From an uncultured Planctomycetia bacterium (GTDB lineage Bacteria > Omnitrophota > Gorgyraeia > Duberdicusellales > 4484-171), in assembly GCA_964536865.1 (NCBI GenBank), contig CAZHYN010000006.1:39172-71171 (forward strand): a stretch of DNA of 32,000 nucleotides, written 5' to 3'. Below are positions 1,643 to 31,229 of this stretch, piece after piece. How positions within the stretch are numbered: position 1 is the stretch's first letter; each line of letters begins with the position of its first letter. A program made the translations under genes and the position numbers. The notes beneath the pieces are model-generated. The model saw only the letters and a list, made by a program, of their open reading frames with translations, ran no database searches and had not been told where the DNA came from.

Positions 1643-1670
1643 TTGCCTAAATATTTTTCTATGTTATAAT
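1643..1670 (+). promoter_or_regulatory. sigma70-like promoter for the tRNA-Phe locus
   Basis: -35 TTGCCT (1643-1648), 16-nt spacer, perfect -10 TATAAT (1665-1670). It lies about 20 nt upstream of the orphan tRNA-Phe 5' half. Confidence 0.5.
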
Positions 1671-1688: not shown

Positions 1689-1724
1689 GTGCCGAGGTAG
1701 CTCAGGAGGTAGAGCGAGGGACTG
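1689..1724 (+). repeat. orphan exact duplicate of the tRNA-Phe 5' half (2 leader nt plus tRNA nt 1-34)
   Basis: The 36 nt at 1689-1724 are identical to 1824-1859. Identity ends after anticodon position 34 (..GACTG). Confidence 0.9.
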
Positions 1725-1725
1725 T

Positions 1726-1773
1726 ATGTGATCTCCGACGTTAGTCGGAGTTGCCCGAAGGGCAAAATCACAT
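1726..1773 (+). other. predicted compact three-way-junction fold immediately after the orphan 5' half
   Basis: Outer stem ATGTGAT (1726-1732) / ATCACAT (1767-1773). Hairpin 1: CTCCGAC (1733-1739) / GTCGGAG (1744-1750), loop GTTA. Hairpin 2: TTGCCC (1751-1756) / GGGCAA (1760-1765), loop GAA. Only 1 unpaired junction nt. Confidence 0.4.
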
Positions 1774-1825
1774 CCAGTTATTACTTTTGCTTAATCGAAA
1801 AACTTTTGATTAAAAATAAAACTGT

Positions 1826-1898
1826 GCCGAGGTAGCTCAGGAGGTAGAGCGAGGGACTGAAAATCCCTGCGTCGGGGGTTCGACTCCCTCCCTCGGCA
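1826..1898 (+). tRNA. tRNA-Phe (anticodon GAA), CCA not encoded
   Basis: Cloverleaf by hand: GCCGAGG-TA-GCTC-AGGAGGTA-GAGC-G-AGGGA-CTGAAAA-TCCCT-GCGTC-GGGGG-TTCGACT-CCCTC-CCTCGGC-A (73 nt). Confidence 0.95.
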
Positions 1899-2025
1899 CT
1901 TTTATCTCTAATTTATAAGTTTATTCTCCTCTCTGTGCGTCTTTAAGTGTTCCTAGGCAATGTCGGATCCAACATATAAATACTTTGGTTTCACCAAAGG
2001 TTGGATACGACTCCCTCCCTCGGCA
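1899..2025 (+). repeat. module Phe-A: variable segment + nested hairpin + exact copy of tRNA-Phe nt 56-73
   Basis: CGACTCCCTCCCTCGGCA at 2008-2025 equals 1881-1898. Outer stem 1967-1973 / 2000-2006, 9-nt 5' internal loop ATATAAATA, inner hairpin 1983-1988 / 1994-1999. Confidence 0.8.
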
Positions 2026-2150
2026 TAGTTTATCCTCACATTCATTAACTTCTTTTTTAAGCTGGAAGTTAGCTCTGAGACGAAAGTATCGTCGGAACAA
2101 ATAAGGGAAAATCGCCTTTGGCGAATTTGTTACGACTCCCTCCCTCGGCA
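2026..2150 (+). repeat. module Phe-B: variable segment + nested hairpin + exact copy of tRNA-Phe nt 56-73
   Basis: CGACTCCCTCCCTCGGCA at 2133-2150. Outer stem AACAAAT (2096-2102) / ATTTGTT (2125-2131), 9-nt internal loop AAGGGAAAA, inner hairpin TCGCC (2112-2116) / GGCGA (2120-2124). Followed by CTTTTTGTTTTT. Confidence 0.8.
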
Positions 2151-8153: not shown

Positions 8154-8952
8154 AATCAGGCCTAATAAAGTAAAGTTTAAACTTATATTTTTTGTTCACT
8201 TGGAGAGCAGTCTCTTTTAATTTTTCTGAAAAATTATAGTAACTTTCCTTATCTCTGTAAATGTTTTCAATACTTTTACCAAGGCTTTCATCTACTTTCT
8301 TTATTTTTTCTAAAATCTCAAGAAAATTCCCCATTTTGCTATGGTAAAGTTCTATATTTACCTCAGTAGTTAATCCTTTCATAAGAGGAAAAATTTCTTC
8401 TAGAGAGCTAAGGTAAGGAATAAATGGACCAATGTGAATTCTTAAAGGTATACCTGCTCTTTTTATTTCTCTAATTACCGCTATTCTTCTTTTAAGAGAG
8501 GGCGAATTTTCCTCTACCAGAGATTTTATCTTTTCTTCAGAGAAATTGAAGGTAAAAAAAATACGATTTTTTTTGTTAACTTTAATGAGAGAGAGGTATT
8601 TTCGTATTAAAGGAGATTTGGTTAGAATTGTATAAGAAATATTGTTTTTGTTCAAGATTTGGATAATCTTTTTACTAATACCATAGGTTAATTCTGCGTA
8701 AGTAAAACATTCACAGCTAGAGCCCAAAATTACTTTCTCTACATTCCGGTATTTTAATTCTTTTTCCAGAATTAAGGGAGCATTAATTTTTATTCCCAAA
8801 GTTTCTCTATCTCTTTGAGCGGTTTTGGTGAATCTAGTATAACAGTATAAGCATCCGAATTCACATCCTCGGTAAGGGTTAATACAGAAAGGAGCTAGAC
8901 TAATTTGAGTAGGAACTAGAACCTTTTGAGTTTTGATAAGTTTAATTTCCAT
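8104..8952 (-). CDS. radical SAM protein, SplB-like 'DNA repair photolyase' (COG1533-type) family
   Basis: INPYRGCEFGCLYCY (CxxxCxxC in the NPY.GC..GC.YCY context). Overlaps both neighbouring genes. Confidence 0.7.
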   Translation of the reverse strand: MEIKLIKTQKVLVPTQISLAPFCINPYRGCEFGCLYCYTRFTKTAQRDRETLGIKINAPLILEKELKYRNVEKVILGSSCECFTYAELTYGISKKIIQILNKNNISYTILTKSPLIRKYLSLIKVNKKNRIFFTFNFSEEKIKSLVEENSPSLKRRIAVIREIKRAGIPLRIHIGPFIPYLSSLEEIFPLMKGLTTEVNIELYHSKMGNFLEILEKIKKVDESLGKSIENIYRDKESYYNFSEKLKETALQVNKKYKFKLYFIRPDFDKFYNSKITYENAVF

Positions 8953-10201
8953 CTCTGTAAAAAAGATTGTTGATAAAACTTTTCGTATGGGGAATTTTTT
9001 CTCTTTCTAAGATAGAAATTAGTTTTTTTACTCTAAAGAGTGTTTCTCTAGGTGGAAGATAGTTAGAAGAAAAGTAATCAATATAAGGGTTAATTTGAGC
9101 TATCTTAGGGATAAATTCTTTATTCTTTACTATGAATTCAGCTGTTTCCTGAAAATCTTTCTTTTCTTCTTGAGGAAAGCCAACTATCAAACTTACCTCA
9201 AAGTGCAAGTTTTCTTTTTTTAAAATCTTAAATAGCGCTAAGGCTTCTTCTTTAGTAAATCCTTTATTCATTGCTTCCAATACTTTATTAGATGCACTTT
9301 CTAACCCAATAAAAAGGTTAAAACATCCACTCTTCTTTAACAGTCTGGCTAAATCTTTAGTAAAATCCCTCTTTACTATTAGCTGAGCTTCCCAACTTAT
9401 CTTCAGATTCTTTCTTAATATGAGACTACAGAACTCCTCTAACCAATTTAGGTTGCCATTGATGAGAGAATCCTGAAAAACGAAATTATTAATTTTGTAT
9501 TTATCAACCAAAAAATTTATCTGTTCTGTCAAATAGAGAGGAGAATGTTGCCTGAACTTAACGGTGAGAAATTTTTCTGCACAAAATTTACACCTCCTTA
9601 TGCATCCTCTTGAAGAATAAAGAGGTAGCATCGATGAGTAAAATTCTATATTGCAATCATTAAATTCACAGAAGGGAATTTCATCCAGATTTTCTAACTC
9701 ATCATGGATAATTATCTTTTCCTTGGAGGAGTTTAAAATTCTTTCTATAGATTTCTCACCTTCTCCTATCACCCAGCTAAAATTATCGTTTAAATATTCT
9801 TTCCTCATTTTCATAAAAAGAACTTCCGGCCCTCCAATGACTATTTTTTTCTTAGGGTAAGCAGATTTTACTTCTTCTATAAAGGAGAAAGTAAAAGGTC
9901 TATTTCTTTTATAAAGAGAAAAGCCAATCAGATTTGCATTCTTTAATTTCTTGAAGATATTCTTTATGATTTGAGGGTGTTTTCTCTTTATTAAGGAGAA
10001 TAAATTCTCTTCAAACTTTTTATCTAAGGATAGCCAAGTTCTTTTGTCTGTGCCCAGGAGTTTGTAACAGAGGATGTTTAAATCTATTATTTTTACTTCA
10101 ATCTTTCTTTTTTTAGAATAATTTTTAATAAACTCTAAACCTAAAGGGGGTGTTTTAATCCAATGAGGGGGGCAGAGAAGGCAATAGACTAAAGCTTTCA
10201 T
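8942..10201 (-). CDS. B12-binding-domain radical SAM protein
   Basis: N-terminal Rossmann-like region of about 170 aa, then SSRGCIRRCKFCAE (CxxxCxxC). 11-nt overlap with the downstream radical SAM gene. Confidence 0.75.
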   Translation of the reverse strand: MKALVYCLLCPPHWIKTPPLGLEFIKNYSKKRKIEVKIIDLNILCYKLLGTDKRTWLSLDKKFEENLFSLIKRKHPQIIKNIFKKLKNANLIGFSLYKRNRPFTFSFIEEVKSAYPKKKIVIGGPEVLFMKMRKEYLNDNFSWVIGEGEKSIERILNSSKEKIIIHDELENLDEIPFCEFNDCNIEFYSSMLPLYSSRGCIRRCKFCAEKFLTVKFRQHSPLYLTEQINFLVDKYKINNFVFQDSLINGNLNWLEEFCSLILRKNLKISWEAQLIVKRDFTKDLARLLKKSGCFNLFIGLESASNKVLEAMNKGFTKEEALALFKILKKENLHFEVSLIVGFPQEEKKDFQETAEFIVKNKEFIPKIAQINPYIDYFSSNYLPPRETLFRVKKLISILEREKIPHTKSFINNLFYRDGN

Positions 10202-10229: not shown

Positions 10230-11342
10230 ATGATGGGTTATCATCTGTATATTCACATTCCCTTTTGTAAAAGTAAATGTCCTTACTGCGATTTCTACAG
10301 TTTACCTTACGAGGAAAGTCTAGCTCGTCAGTATATAGATATTTTATCTAAAGAAATCAGAAATTTAAATATAAATGTGACAACAACCTACATTGGTGGT
10401 GGTACCCCTACAGTGTTAAGTCCTAATCTATTAGATTCTCTACTTAAGAGTATGGAGAGGATAATTAGAAGATCCAAAGAAGTCACAATTGAGGCAAATC
10501 CTGAGAGTTTAACCGATGATAAACTAAAGTTATTCTTAAAAAAAGGAATAAACAGAATAAGCATTGGAATTCAATCTTTAAGAGAGGATAAATTGAAGTT
10601 TTTAGGAAGAATTCACTCTACTGGAGAGGGAATAGGTGCGGTTTATAAAGCAAAAAGAATTGGTTTCAAGAATATAAGTGTGGATTTAATCTATGGAGTA
10701 CCTTATGAAACCTTAGAAAGTTGGCGCAAAGAACTTAAAGCTATAGTAAAGTTGCCCGTTACTCATATATCTTGTTATAGTTTAACACCGGAAGAATCTA
10801 CCCCTTTCTATAAATTTAAAGAAGAGATAGATGAAGATACTGTTGCTCAGATGTTCCTCTACAATATGAATTATCTTCCTCGTAAGGGGTTTTATCATTA
10901 CGAGGTTTCTAATTTTGCCAAAAGAGATTATCAATGCAAACATAATTTAGCTTATTGGGATAACGCTCCTTATATTGGGTTAGGTCCGTCGGCGGTATCT
11001 TTTATAGAGGGAAGGAGAGTTAAGAATGTAGAGGATATCCAAAGATATATTGAAGGTAAAAACTCAAAAAAATACTTGATAATAGAGGAGAGACTTTCTC
11101 CTTTCCGTAGAGCTAAAGAAACTGTCTGTTTAAATTTGAGAAGGAAAGTAGGTGTGGAATTTGTCAGGTTTAGAGAAAAAACAGGTTTCGATTTTTGGGA
11201 GATAGAGGATAGAGATGTAGTAAGAAGATTAATCAAAAATGGCTTTCTTCGTTATAAAAAAAGAGGAAAAGAGATTATAGGGTTGTTTTTGACTAAAAAA
11301 GGATTTCTCTATGCTGATGAGGTATGTTCTGAATTAATTTAA
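10230..11342 (+). CDS. hemW: radical SAM heme chaperone HemW (HemN-like family)
   Basis: YIHIPFCKSKCPYCDF, IGGGTP, HISCYSL; 370 aa with a HemN_C-like tail. Confidence 0.85.
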   Translation: MMGYHLYIHIPFCKSKCPYCDFYSLPYEESLARQYIDILSKEIRNLNINVTTTYIGGGTPTVLSPNLLDSLLKSMERIIRRSKEVTIEANPESLTDDKLKLFLKKGINRISIGIQSLREDKLKFLGRIHSTGEGIGAVYKAKRIGFKNISVDLIYGVPYETLESWRKELKAIVKLPVTHISCYSLTPEESTPFYKFKEEIDEDTVAQMFLYNMNYLPRKGFYHYEVSNFAKRDYQCKHNLAYWDNAPYIGLGPSAVSFIEGRRVKNVEDIQRYIEGKNSKKYLIIEERLSPFRRAKETVCLNLRRKVGVEFVRFREKTGFDFWEIEDRDVVRRLIKNGFLRYKKRGKEIIGLFLTKKGFLYADEVCSELI

Positions 11343-11528: not shown

Positions 11529-11553
11529 TATAAATAGAGATACCAGATAACTC

Positions 11554-11578
11554 AGAGGTTCAAATCCTCTCTCCGGCT
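11554..11578 (+). repeat. orphan diverged tRNA 3' fragment (complete T arm + acceptor 3' strand + discriminator)
   Basis: AGAGG-TTCAAAT-CCTCT-CTCCGGC-T compared with the tRNA-Thr GAGAG-TTCGAAT-CTCTC-TCCCGGC-T. No matching 5' acceptor strand nearby. Ends 11 nt before the MFS start codon. Confidence 0.7.
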
Positions 11579-11589
11579 AAGGAGATGAG

Positions 11590-12849
11590 ATGTTTGTATC
11601 TTACTTTAAGGTCTTAAAAAGGAGAAATTTTTTTCTTCTATGGTTTGGTCAGGTAATTTCTCAATTTGGAGATCGTCTCACCCAGATGGCCCTGATAGGT
11701 TTAGTGTATGAGCTTATGCCTCATTCCTCTATGAGTTTAGCTAAGGTTATGAGTTTACCTGTGTTGGCGGTACTATTAATTTCCCCAGTAGCAGGAGTTT
11801 ATGTAGATAGATGGCAAAAAAGAAAGACTATGTATGTAAGTGATTTCTTAAGAGGAATATGTATAGCCCTTATTTTCATTCTGATTTTTAAGTTTAAAAC
11901 AATGATTTTTATCTACTTCCTTATTTTTCTTTCTTTTTGTGTAGGTAGATTTTTTATCCCTGCTAAGATGGCTATAATTCCTACTCTAGTAGATCAAAAG
12001 GATCTCCTCTTAGCTAACTCATTAGTTTCAATTACTGCTATGATTGCTGCTATTTTAGGTTTTGGTTTAGGGGGGATAATTGTAGAAAAGTTAGGTGTAA
12101 AAGTAGCTTTTTTAATAGATAGTGTGACTTTTTTCCTTTCTTCCTTAGCAGTACTTTCTATGAGGGTACAAGAAAGAGGGTTATTTAGTCCGAAGGATTT
12201 TCTTGATTTAAGTAAGCAAGCTATTGAAGAGGTAAAACGTTCTTTTATATTTGAGATGAAAGAAGGATTAAAGTATCTTCTTAAAAGTAAAGAGACCCGT
12301 TATGCTGCCCAGGTATTTTTTCTTCTTTTTTCCTGTTTAGGCTCTCTTTATGTAGTATTCATTGTTTTTATTCAAAATACCCTTTCTTCAGTTACTTTAG
12401 ATTTAGGATACCTTGCTGTAGGTCTGGGCACAGGGTTATTTGTGGGTTCTTTAATTTATGGAAAGATAGGTAAAAGGTACCCTTTTAAAAAATCAATAAA
12501 TGTATCTTTACTCATCAATAGTATTTATTTAATATCATTTGTTACTGTACTGAAGTTTCACCCCTCTAAATTTTTTGCTTTCTTTTCTTGTTTTCTTCTA
12601 GGAGGATTTTCATCTCCTGTTGTGGTGGGAATTAATGCTTTAATTCATAGTGAAAGTCAAAATATTTTTTGGGGTAGAATTTTTAGTTCTCTGGAAGTAG
12701 TGATGCATTTTGCATTTATAGCTTTTATGTTTTTATCTTCTTATCTAGCAGGATTTTTTTCTCCCTTTACAATAATTGTGAGTGTAGGTATAATTATATT
12801 CTTTTTTTCCTCCTTTAGATTACTTAATGAGCCTAAAGGCAATGATTAG
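11590..12849 (+). CDS. MFS transporter (EntS/MFS_3-like)
   Basis: 419 aa with about 12 predicted TM helices. N-terminus FFLLWFGQVISQFGDRLTQMAL is typical of this MFS subgroup. SD AAGGAG upstream. Confidence 0.8.
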   Translation: MFVSYFKVLKRRNFFLLWFGQVISQFGDRLTQMALIGLVYELMPHSSMSLAKVMSLPVLAVLLISPVAGVYVDRWQKRKTMYVSDFLRGICIALIFILIFKFKTMIFIYFLIFLSFCVGRFFIPAKMAIIPTLVDQKDLLLANSLVSITAMIAAILGFGLGGIIVEKLGVKVAFLIDSVTFFLSSLAVLSMRVQERGLFSPKDFLDLSKQAIEEVKRSFIFEMKEGLKYLLKSKETRYAAQVFFLLFSCLGSLYVVFIVFIQNTLSSVTLDLGYLAVGLGTGLFVGSLIYGKIGKRYPFKKSINVSLLINSIYLISFVTVLKFHPSKFFAFFSCFLLGGFSSPVVVGINALIHSESQNIFWGRIFSSLEVVMHFAFIAFMFLSSYLAGFFSPFTIIVSVGIIIFFFSSFRLLNEPKGND

Positions 12850-20561: not shown

Positions 20562-20638
<77 letters not shown>

Positions 20639-20767
20639 TTTCTATTAATCTTAATCTATGTTATGTAATCTTTATCTCGCTTACTATGCAAAAGCAATTT
20701 TGGATGCAATAAATAAAAGACTCCGCCTCTGGCGGAGATTGCATACAAATCGGCCCCCCGCAACCAT
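20639..20767 (+). repeat. module fMet-1: variable segment + nested hairpin + exact copy of tRNA-fMet nt 56-76
   Basis: CAAATCGGCCCCCCGCAACCAT at 20746-20767 equals 20618-20639. Outer stem ATGCAAT (20704-20710) / ATTGCAT (20738-20744), 10-nt internal loop AAATAAAAGA, inner hairpin CTCCGCC (20721-20727) / GGCGGAG (20731-20737). Confidence 0.8.
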
Positions 20768-20880
20768 CTAAATTTCTACCCGAGCTTTAAGAGATACTAC
20801 TTTTATATTATAGGCGAGCGTAATTTTGATGTGATAAATATGTGAACGTTTCAACTTAGGGAAGGTTGCACACAAATCAC
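20768..20880 (+). repeat. module fMet-2 (degenerate): keeps the hairpin 3' strand and T-loop part only
   Basis: GTTGCACACAAATC (20865-20878) compared with ATTGCATACAAATC (20738-20751). CAAATC recurs at 20873, 127 nt after 20746. The tRNA acceptor part is absent and only a weaker hairpin remains (20852-20868). Confidence 0.5.
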
Positions 20881-31181: not shown

Positions 31182-31229
31182 TACTACGTCAAGATGTTAA
31201 ATTTTTACTACGTAAAAATGTTAAATTTT
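31182..31229. repeat. 24-bp tandem direct repeat (2 copies) abutting the transposase 3' end
   Basis: TACTACGTCAAGATGTTAAATTTT (31182-31205) and TACTACGTAAAAATGTTAAATTTT (31206-31229): 22/24 identical. Confidence 0.8.

Follow-up and report, generated by a model that had tools for sequence, protein, structure and literature searches.

The 32-kb window (the whole stretch of DNA analysed here) is an unremarkable part of the chromosome of an uncultured Candidatus Omnitrophota bacterium, its G+C content being about 34%, and our subject is a set of short modules that lie beside its tRNA-Phe and initiator-like tRNA-Met genes, each of them carrying a hairpin that abuts an orphan copy of part of the neighbouring tRNA. 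The other genes of the window are of housekeeping and regulatory kinds (a GGDEF/HD-GYP protein, dagK, a C45-BamA fusion, radical-SAM enzymes, an rnf operon, enolase, ftsB and ribonucleotide reductase), and the protein adjoining tRNA-Phe is 98% identical to a protein of an Omnitrophica metagenome-assembled genome at NCBI. Neither integrase nor transposase genes, a Y1 HUH transposase included, were found within the 32 kb. Labels from L008 to L199 denote stretches of other genomes or contigs that were compared with the window. The tRNA-Phe locus is composed as follows.

1643..1670, plus strand: promoter-like site TTGCCT-16-TATAAT (10 of 12 matches, with a TG extension), upstream of the orphan tRNA-Phe 5′ half, in a region also conserved in L124; probably the original tRNA-Phe promoter
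1689..1724, plus strand: orphan copy of 2 nucleotides (nt) of upstream sequence plus tRNA-Phe nt 1-34, ending at G34 of the anticodon loop (exact 36-nt repeat; same junction in L124)
1721..1778, minus strand: mirror-module hairpin ACTG-G-ATGTGAT-[TGCCC TTC GGGCA][CTCCGAC TAAC GTCGGAG]-ATCACAT-A-CAGT (strict design scan; DNA fold z-score −6.7 to −8.0)
1725..1823, minus strand: mirror-module body, between the orphan 5′ half and the working tRNA, with a 135-nt period when the repeat is included (reverse complement aligns with the downstream modules)
1826..1898, plus strand: intact tRNA-Phe (GAA), without encoded CCA (ARAGORN, Rfam)
1899..2025, plus strand: Phe module 1 (M1), 127 nt, with a trailer-like left part, a hairpin at 1962-2011 (GTCG-G-ATCCAAC...GTTGGAT-A-CGAC) and orphan nt 56-73 at 2008-2025 (fold z-score −4.1; strict design scan)
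2026..2150, plus strand: Phe module 2 (M2), 125 nt, with a hairpin at 2091-2136 (GTCG-G-AACAAAT...ATTTGTT-A-CGAC) and orphan nt 56-73 at 2133-2150 (fold z-score −2.3; strict design scan)

The downstream modules are marked by the 18-mer CGACTCCCTCCCTCGGCA, which corresponds to nt 56-73 of tRNA-Phe and occurs at 1881-1898, 2008-2025 and 2133-2150. A search of the window reproduced both the three sites and the periods of 127 and 125 nt that a first-pass annotation of this DNA had reported, and it returned no further match with up to three mismatches allowed (0.01 expected by chance). The T-A dinucleotide described there before both orphan 18-mers is present, and folding each module as DNA, with z-scores computed, recovered the same 7-bp stems, 9-nt A-rich bulge and inner hairpin. 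A T-rich trailer that resembles the original tRNA-Phe trailer follows M2. Upstream of the tRNA lies a further module that had been overlooked. It is introduced by an exact 36-nt repeat (1689-1724 = 1824-1859), made up of 2 nt of upstream sequence and tRNA-Phe nt 1-34, and the plus-strand order behind this orphan 5′ half is a T, a 7-bp stem ATGTGAT...ATCACAT that holds two hairpins, and C-CAGT. This is the exact reverse-complement layout of the downstream modules, so that module orientation follows the adjoining tRNA block and not the direction of transcription. The mirror-image module separates the tRNA from the promoter-like site at 1643-1670, and it has a second hairpin in place of the T-run.

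The tRNA-Met locus repeats this arrangement.

20562..20638, plus strand: tRNA-Met (CAT; C1.A72, initiator-like), CCA encoded (ARAGORN, Rfam)
20639..20767, plus strand: Met module 1, 128-nt period, with a hairpin at 20699-20749 (TTTG-G-ATGCAAT...ATTGCAT-A-CAAA) and orphan nt 56-76 plus T at 20746-20767 (fold z-score −4.1; strict scan; identical in L180 and L183)
about 20768..20876, plus strand: Met module 2, decayed, with 5′ arm ATGTGAT, 3′ arm GTTGCAC and the orphan shortened to CAAATC (fold z-score +0.9; module alignment)

The statement that the same design recurs behind the initiator tRNA-Met was borne out by the 22-mer CAAATCGGCCCCCCGCAACCAT (C56 through CCA plus T), which is found at 20618 and 20746, with a period of 128 nt and a hairpin of the same kind.

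Under closer inspection, the modules share a design that reaches into the tRNA itself. It can be written N4 - G - [A N6 ... N6′ T] - A - N4′, where N4′ stands for the four nucleotides that open the tRNA-identical block, and N4 is complementary to them. The 7-bp stem is closed by A-T and holds an A-rich bulge or an extra hairpin, plus the inner hairpin, and the helix extends past a conserved G.A mismatch into a base helix of 4 bp, one strand of which is supplied by the opening 4 nt of the tRNA block, an extension missed in the first-pass annotation. N4/N4′ is GTCG/CGAC for the Phe T-loop (M1, M2 and a module at L081, in another Omnitrophota genome), TTTG/CAAA for the Met T-loop and ACTG/CAGT for the complement of the Phe anticodon loop (mirror module). 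The two tetranucleotides are thus complementary in five of five intact members, changing with the target, and the last base of the guide (N4) is always a G, paired with the C of a TTC. The tRNA-identical block always starts at the C of this TTC within a 7-nt hairpin loop, namely at T54-T55-C56 of the T-loop in tRNA-Phe and tRNA-Met and at the complement of the anticodon GAA in the mirror module; the module equivalent reads T-A-C. The exact tRNA repeats are 18, 18, 22 and 36 nt long, with identity extending 0-11 nt beyond the tRNA end.

To see how specific this design is, both strands were scanned under the strict demand that all 11 pairs be Watson-Crick. The window yielded four sites, each abutting a tRNA-identical block, and 20 mononucleotide shuffles yielded none. 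The same scan gave one convincing match, L081, in 914 kb of unrelated loci; over about 1.4 Mb of other DNA it recovered the module of the window again in L180, L181 and L183 (near-identical strains and one relative), L081 as the sole independent new member, and five further matches (four distinct sequences) that have no inner hairpin and look like chance. Among the five members, 87 of 87 stem pairs are Watson-Crick, with no G-T or G-U pair, and at least two pair types occur in 7 of the 11 columns of the base and outer helices. Compensatory changes are also seen in the inner hairpins (CTCCGCC/GGCGGAG, CTTCGCC/GGCGAAG and CTCCGAC/GTCGGAG), whose short sequences MAFFT misaligned. The consensus of the module alignment is AAAAGCAAT-NNNG-GGATGCAAT-(A-rich 9-10 nt or TGCCC-TTY-GGGCA)-CTYCGCC-TNN-GGCGRAG-ATTGCAT-A-CNNN. 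Hence, the earlier view that the fold is conserved and the sequence is not holds in its first half, given the covarying stems, and fails in its second, as the modules align as one homologous family. Module length, which had been called constant, is not strictly so (periods of 125-135 nt), and since the modules are homologous, their similar length is most simply inherited from a common ancestor, without the need for a ruler mechanism. Neither open reading frames (ORFs) nor cargo remnants were found within the modules.

These observations bear on the simplest account of the locus, in which the modules would be nothing more than att scars, left in decay by ordinary multi-kb islands, or local duplications that arose by chance, with unrelated terminators as hairpins. 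tRNA genes are indeed common integration sites, a 3′ fragment of a different tRNA, lacking the hairpin design, lies behind tRNA-Thr, and other phyla have assorted short orphan fragments behind their tRNAs. However, the exact design occurs four times in the window and once more in L081, with no occurrence in shuffles, N4 tracks its target, and the modules are homologous across loci and genomes with lengths of 125-135 nt. We consider this account very improbable. The first-pass annotation had likewise rejected simple att scars, a judgement now supported by the homologous family, the covarying hairpin tied to the tRNA junction and the lack of any cargo remnant.

The distribution of the modules among relatives suggests some age. 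In L081, part of the complete Omnitrophota chromosome CP070807.1, a module with a period of 135 follows tRNA-Phe; the match of the scan lies 64 nt behind the gene and is the hairpin GTCG-G-ATGCAAT-[TGCCC TTT GGGCA][CTTCGCC TGC GGCGAAG]-ATTGCAT-A-CGAC. This Phe module has the same flank AAAAGCAAT and the same stem GGATGCAAT...ATTGCATA as the Met module of the window, with a different N4, of the Phe type, and it shares the extra TGCCC/GGGCA hairpin with the mirror module. The tRNA-Met locus is the same as that of the window in L180 and L183, where FtsB is 100% and 99% identical. In L181 (FtsB 86% identical), the Met module is present and its 51-nt hairpin, N4 and N4′ included, is unchanged, whereas the 60-nt left part differs from the window by five substitutions and one 3-nt indel and the 42-nt spacer upstream of the tRNA by four substitutions; the probability of no change in the 51 nt is about 0.005 at a neutral divergence of about 10%. 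Homology between L181 and the window breaks exactly after N4′ (...ATTGCATACAAA|GGAGATG...), with other genes beyond. At the tRNA-Phe locus, L124 (neighbouring protein 81% identical) keeps the orphan 5′ half together with a mirror hairpin that differs by one loop base, its contig stopping inside the module, and in L126 (65% identical) both tRNA-Phe and the module are decayed, next to an IS256-like transposase remnant (11900-12100). The module is absent from the tRNA-Phe loci of L008, L091 and L101 and from the tRNA-Met locus of L185, and synteny with tRNA-Phe is lost in L198 and L199, two relatives found via the C45-BamA protein. Taken together, the sequences compared indicate that the modules are old enough to be shared among close relatives and are absent from more distant ones, with hairpins that are constrained and oldest copies that are decaying.

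Wider scans added little to this set. The 18-mer, run against the genome collection, mostly hit tRNA-Leu genes of other phyla that have the same 18-mer, and led to L081, L008, L091 and L101. A metagenome scan for A plus the 18-mer gave four matches, two of them tRNA-Leu modules of the Candidate Phyla Radiation (CPR) and two coding coincidences. Viral contigs showed no match to TA followed by the Phe or Met orphan, and their 52 matches to GGATGCAAT...ATTGCATAC were all unrelated sequence, none with the inner hairpin; N4 is paired in one of the 52 (L168), which is about chance level.

A few observations concern the surroundings of these loci. L198 contains an IS110-family (Transposase_20) ORF at 8681-9238. 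In L125, a strain that encodes a GGDEF protein of 98% identity, similarity to the window is lost about 130 nt past that gene. The new sequence (2580-2766), with which the contig ends, has the repeats ACAGGACATTTTTA / ACCGGACATTTTTA, reminiscent of the binding sites at transposon ends. Two independent assemblies, L179 (ending at 10386) and L182 (ending at 1229), stop within tRNA-Met at about nt 44-47, immediately ahead of the T-arm, and L124 stops inside the mirror hairpin; such breaks at tRNA and module sites may reflect population heterogeneity.

Could the hairpins work as RNA? The modules might encode a processed minihelix-like RNA, a terminator on the minus strand or an RNA antisense to the tRNA 3′ end. 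The hairpin does resemble an acceptor/T-arm minihelix, with a 7-bp acceptor-like stem, a stacked T-arm-like hairpin, a discriminator A and a leader-trailer pairing between N4 and N4′; moreover, there is no plus-strand terminator between the tRNA and the modules, and the hairpin is kept in relatives. On the minus strand, the inner hairpin and T-run are terminator-like in M1, M2 and Met module 1, M2 being the first hairpin met by the convergent dagK / C45-BamA operon. Intrinsic-terminator scoring gave the following features.

1983-1999, minus strand: terminator-like inner hairpin plus the complement of the A-rich bulge
2112-2124, minus strand: terminator-like inner hairpin plus the complement of the A-rich bulge
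20721-20737, minus strand: terminator-like inner hairpin plus the complement of the A-rich bulge

Against a role in RNA stands the upstream module, which is opposite to tRNA transcription and yet no less well formed or conserved. There is no G-U among the 87 pairs. In Rfam 15, the three tRNAs alone match at the gathering score, with nothing credible for the modules up to an E-value of 10. Furthermore, a terminator has no need of the outer stem, the G.A mismatch or a target-matched N4, the upstream module and L081 have a second hairpin replacing the T-run, and the distal Met module is decayed. A functional RNA or transcription signal as the main explanation thus seems decidedly unlikely to us, and the structured RNA co-transcribed with the tRNA, proposed earlier as an alternative, is disfavoured by the opposite-orientation copy, the lack of G-U pairs, the lack of an Rfam match and the decayed oldest copy. 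A terminator role as a secondary function of the modules is plausible.

An unlikely, though serious, alternative is that the modules are products of a tyrosine integrase, either elements like cis-mobilizable elements (CIMEs) or att scars, with attL/attR cores in the T-loop or anticodon loop as their borders, moved as double-stranded DNA by a tRNA-specific enzyme encoded elsewhere, and that the hairpin is incidental or a site for an accessory protein. The repeats are formed by the part of the tRNA from the T-loop or anticodon loop to the gene end, and identity blocks of this extent are reportedly usual for integrase att cores (the 2002 sublocation classes of Williams; P4-type sites). Tandem stacking is typical of accretion, and relatives have islands with recombinase genes at the same tRNA-Met, such as the resolvase gene in L192, L195 and L197. 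On the other hand, a duplex circle of 125 nt would be a poor substrate for a double-strand integrase, and the core half-site expected left of the crossover is completely different among M1 (GTTGGATA), M2 (ATTTGTTA) and the tRNA (GGGGGTT). The mismatch at T55 would fall within the presumed overlap region, size and layout are kept across loci and genomes with cargo remnants absent, a 4-nt complement at the hairpin foot has no part in a double-strand att site, and the window contains no integrase gene. The first-pass annotation had offered a miniature element moved in trans by a T-loop-specific tyrosine integrase. An element moved in trans is the best fit to our results as well, and the T-loop-specific tyrosine integrase is left without support by the mirror module, which sits in the anticodon loop on the other strand, by crossover half-sites that differ at the same tRNA and by the guide at the hairpin foot, a feature closer to the ends on which single-strand HUH transposases act or to recombination sites of folded DNA.

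We therefore favour, with a probability of roughly 55%, the reading that the modules are one homologous family of non-coding insertion units of about 125-135 nt in tRNA genes, with the hairpin and guide acting as a signal at the DNA level. A DNA-level signal agrees best with an orientation that follows the tRNA block, with pairs that are all Watson-Crick, with a hairpin that includes the junction and with a breakpoint at the hairpin end. In the mechanism that we envisage, the entry point would be the TTC trinucleotide exposed in a hairpin loop of the tRNA gene. Insertion would leave the tRNA intact and displace a copy of the remainder of the gene, from the loop to 0-11 nt past the gene end, and repeated insertion at the regenerated site would stack modules, the newest adjoining the tRNA. 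The working part would be the terminal hairpin, with its A-T-closed 7-bp stem, an inner hairpin stacked on the strand that enters the tRNA block, the G.A mismatch and the 4-nt guide at the 5′ foot. By pairing with the junction nucleotides C56-N59, this guide would set which tRNA loop is used, so that two or three base changes could retarget the module. The hairpin would fold in DNA, as a folded single strand or a cruciform, and mark where a recombinase or transposase, encoded at another place in the genome, binds and cuts, with cleavage presumably at 55|56 or 59|60. The breakpoint in L181 would match cleavage 3′ of the terminal tetranucleotide (tRNA 59|60). That identity runs 0-11 nt past the tRNA end, in L081 into the locus-specific trailer, argues less for carriage of the tRNA block by the element than for its duplication when the module inserted, or for gene conversion at a later time; the latter is suggested by AGGAGG, common to the orphan and the working tRNA of the window, versus AGGCGG in the orphan of L124. 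Mobility itself, like each of these steps, is what the sequences suggest. As to the enzyme, we give about equal odds to a single-strand transposase of the HUH Y1 type and to a tyrosine recombinase that works on folded DNA.

It is tempting to go further and speculate that the modules represent an undescribed class of hairpin-guided, retargetable mobile elements in Omnitrophota, with simpler relatives in Patescibacteria, that would enter single-stranded tRNA-gene loops containing TTC, restore the tRNA with a displaced segment either duplicated or carried along, and use a new branch of HUH Y1 enzymes or a tyrosine recombinase of folded DNA; we hold this as a tentative proposal, which may well prove wrong. 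The literature searched contains no description of such elements, and an Omnitrophota preprint makes no mention of them.

Several other processes were considered and set aside. Retroviral-type tRNA priming or cDNA capture of the Mauriceville type does not fit Phe orphans that lack CCA and an identity that starts at nt 56, not nt 59. For a guide RNA of the TnpB/Cas12 type, the would-be transposon-associated motif is variable or too short, and a gene of that type was not seen. Fold-back copying as the source of N4 predicts a T opposite the A, not the conserved G, and the modules are too small for an IS110 bridge RNA.

Among known systems, the closest analogue appears to be the ends of IS200/IS605 insertion sequences and of repetitive extragenic palindromes (REPs), although the likeness does not place the modules among their members. 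There, a guide tetranucleotide 5′ of the hairpin foot pairs with the cleavage tetranucleotide, and a Y1 HUH enzyme binds the hairpin (PMC3201880, PMC6006769). Like the modules, IS200/IS605 elements, palindrome-associated transposable elements (PATEs) and REPs or bacterial interspersed mosaic elements (BIMEs), served by TnpA and TnpA-REP, have a structure-specific end hairpin with little sequence conservation, and the guide is placed as at the right end (RE) of IS608 (PMC3201880, PMC6006769). IS200/IS605 elements also insert in a specific orientation beside a short motif chosen by base pairing, which can be reset via the guide, and have non-coding miniature derivatives (PMC3201880, PMC6006769). 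In the modules, unlike IS200/IS605, the target tetranucleotide varies between copies.

A second resemblance is to integron attC sites and the attP(+) site of CTX phage, on which tyrosine recombinases act in the form of folded single strands. These likewise have one hairpin at the 3′ end of each unit, a fold that is conserved when sequence is not, bulges, a variable terminal structure and a basal helix reaching across the junction to the next unit, the units stacking at a platform with the newest first. Only one of five module hairpins fits the attC boxes RYYYAAC/GTTRRRY (M1, ATCCAAC/GTTGGAT), probably by chance, and AACAAAT, ATGCAAT and ATGTGAT do not. Integrons also differ in platform (attI or dif versus a tRNA loop) and repeat length (7 versus 18-36 nt), and the modules, at about 125 nt, have no ORF. 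With CIMEs and tandem accretion at tRNAs, the modules share non-autonomous units between tRNA 3′ att repeats, in tandem beside an intact tRNA. CIMEs, which integrative and conjugative elements (ICEs) or genomic islands leave behind, are usually kilobases long, with cargo or the arms of a known parent element and without a target-matched hairpin; the modules, in contrast, are tiny, have such a hairpin and have no known parent element. Finally, integration of the casposon or CRISPR type resembles the present case in that a tRNA 3′-end segment is duplicated, the T-psi-C region helps to define the site and tandem insertion is possible in principle (PMC5137440). Casposons differ in being large, in having terminal inverted repeats and in duplicating a constant 15 bp, of which only 5 bp lie within the tRNA (PMC5137440). 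No terminal inverted repeats were seen on reading the module ends, and the module repeats, of 18-36 nt, start inside the loop.

A number of points weigh against the favoured reading or against membership in IS200/IS605. IS200/IS605 elements have a hairpin at each end, and folding whole modules gave one conserved hairpin each, the left parts having no common structure. The IS608-type guide lies 10-19 nt away and makes non-canonical contacts, whereas the module guide, set off by a 1-nt spacer (the G.A mismatch), simply continues the stem with Watson-Crick pairs. Direct tRNA repeats of 18-36 nt flank the modules, and IS200/IS605 insertions make none. M1 and M2 are not close in sequence, a distance that excludes a recent burst; no near-identical recent copy was seen at a second locus, and no transposase or integrase that could be linked to the modules was found in the relatives. 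A formal covariation test would need more independent members than the present five or six, and the L181 breakpoint after N4′ is a single observation. Three of the five inner hairpins, with their adjoining T-run, resemble intrinsic terminators on the minus strand, and the conservation of the hairpin in the orthologous L181 and L124 could equally mean a function at the level of the host.

Other genomes, too, have short hairpin units with a foot matching the adjacent tRNA edge, and for at least one kind of them the number of copies differs between strains. Of 190 tRNAs at the compared loci, about 10 are accompanied, at a distance of up to about 150 nt, by an orphan piece of their own sequence. 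At two CPR tRNA-Leu loci downstream of dnaB, L121 (2717-2795) and L122 (1672-1750), a 79-nt module of the form GTCG|ACGC...GCGT|GA|CGAC has a simpler hairpin that pairs GTCG with C56-C59; its stems are kept between the two species, and loop and flank have diverged. In another Omnitrophota lineage, hairpin units of 59-83 nt, TTTCGC-TT-[stem]-C-GCGAAA, are stacked at the 5′ edge of tRNA-Met, where the tRNA 5′ junction reads TTTTCGC (L192, 1600-1900; L193, 1560-1720; also L194, L195 and L197), in one or four copies among contigs that encode an identical FtsB protein. A gene for a 177-aa resolvase lies right downstream of tRNA-Met in the four-unit contigs, and L193 has a resolvase remnant.

Other arrangements of tRNA pieces were noted on the way. 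Small GIY-YIG nuclease ORFs stand in tandem with partial tRNA copies in L038 (1850-2640, Leu) and L119 (4340-4910, Val), the copies having a G+C-rich hairpin insert of 40-45 nt in the D-loop; these arrays are a different kind of tRNA-associated selfish element, present in Patescibacteria and Omnitrophota. A palindrome splits an orphan tRNA 3′ block as CGACTCCCT[GCCTGCCGGCAGGCAGGC]CTCCCTCGGCAC, 38 nt identical between L081 (6845-6882), from Omnitrophota, and L038 (2856-2893 and 3020-3057), from a Patescibacteria genome, and a comparable G+C hairpin is found in the T-loop of orphan tRNA blocks in L030 (Chloroflexi). Within the window, a 26-nt T-arm and acceptor-3′ piece of another tRNA (cagaggttcaaatcctctctccggct) lies at 11553-11578, 24 nt behind tRNA-Thr(CGT), and does not show the GGA...TAC hairpin design; it is either what is left of a second tRNA gene or a scar of a different and older type. 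A 24-nt tandem repeat in two copies (TACTACGTCAAGATGTTAAATTTT) occupies 31182-31229, within the low-G+C part of the window at 31-32 kb.

The modules are relevant to annotation even if they do not move: orphan halves are easily mistaken for att sites or fragments of tRNAs, and some of the modules may be terminators. If our reading is true, a very small, site-specific insertion system programmed by base pairing joins the known kinds of mobile DNA, with target tRNA loops that are universal and essential. It would imply an enzyme that reads a hairpin together with a 4-nt guide, which is relevant to HUH and IS200/IS605 mechanisms and to programmable DNA insertion. It would also explain the tendency of metagenome assemblies to break at tRNA genes, as well as the short orphan tRNA fragments that frequently flank tRNA genes in uncultured lineages with small genomes, such as Omnitrophota and Patescibacteria.

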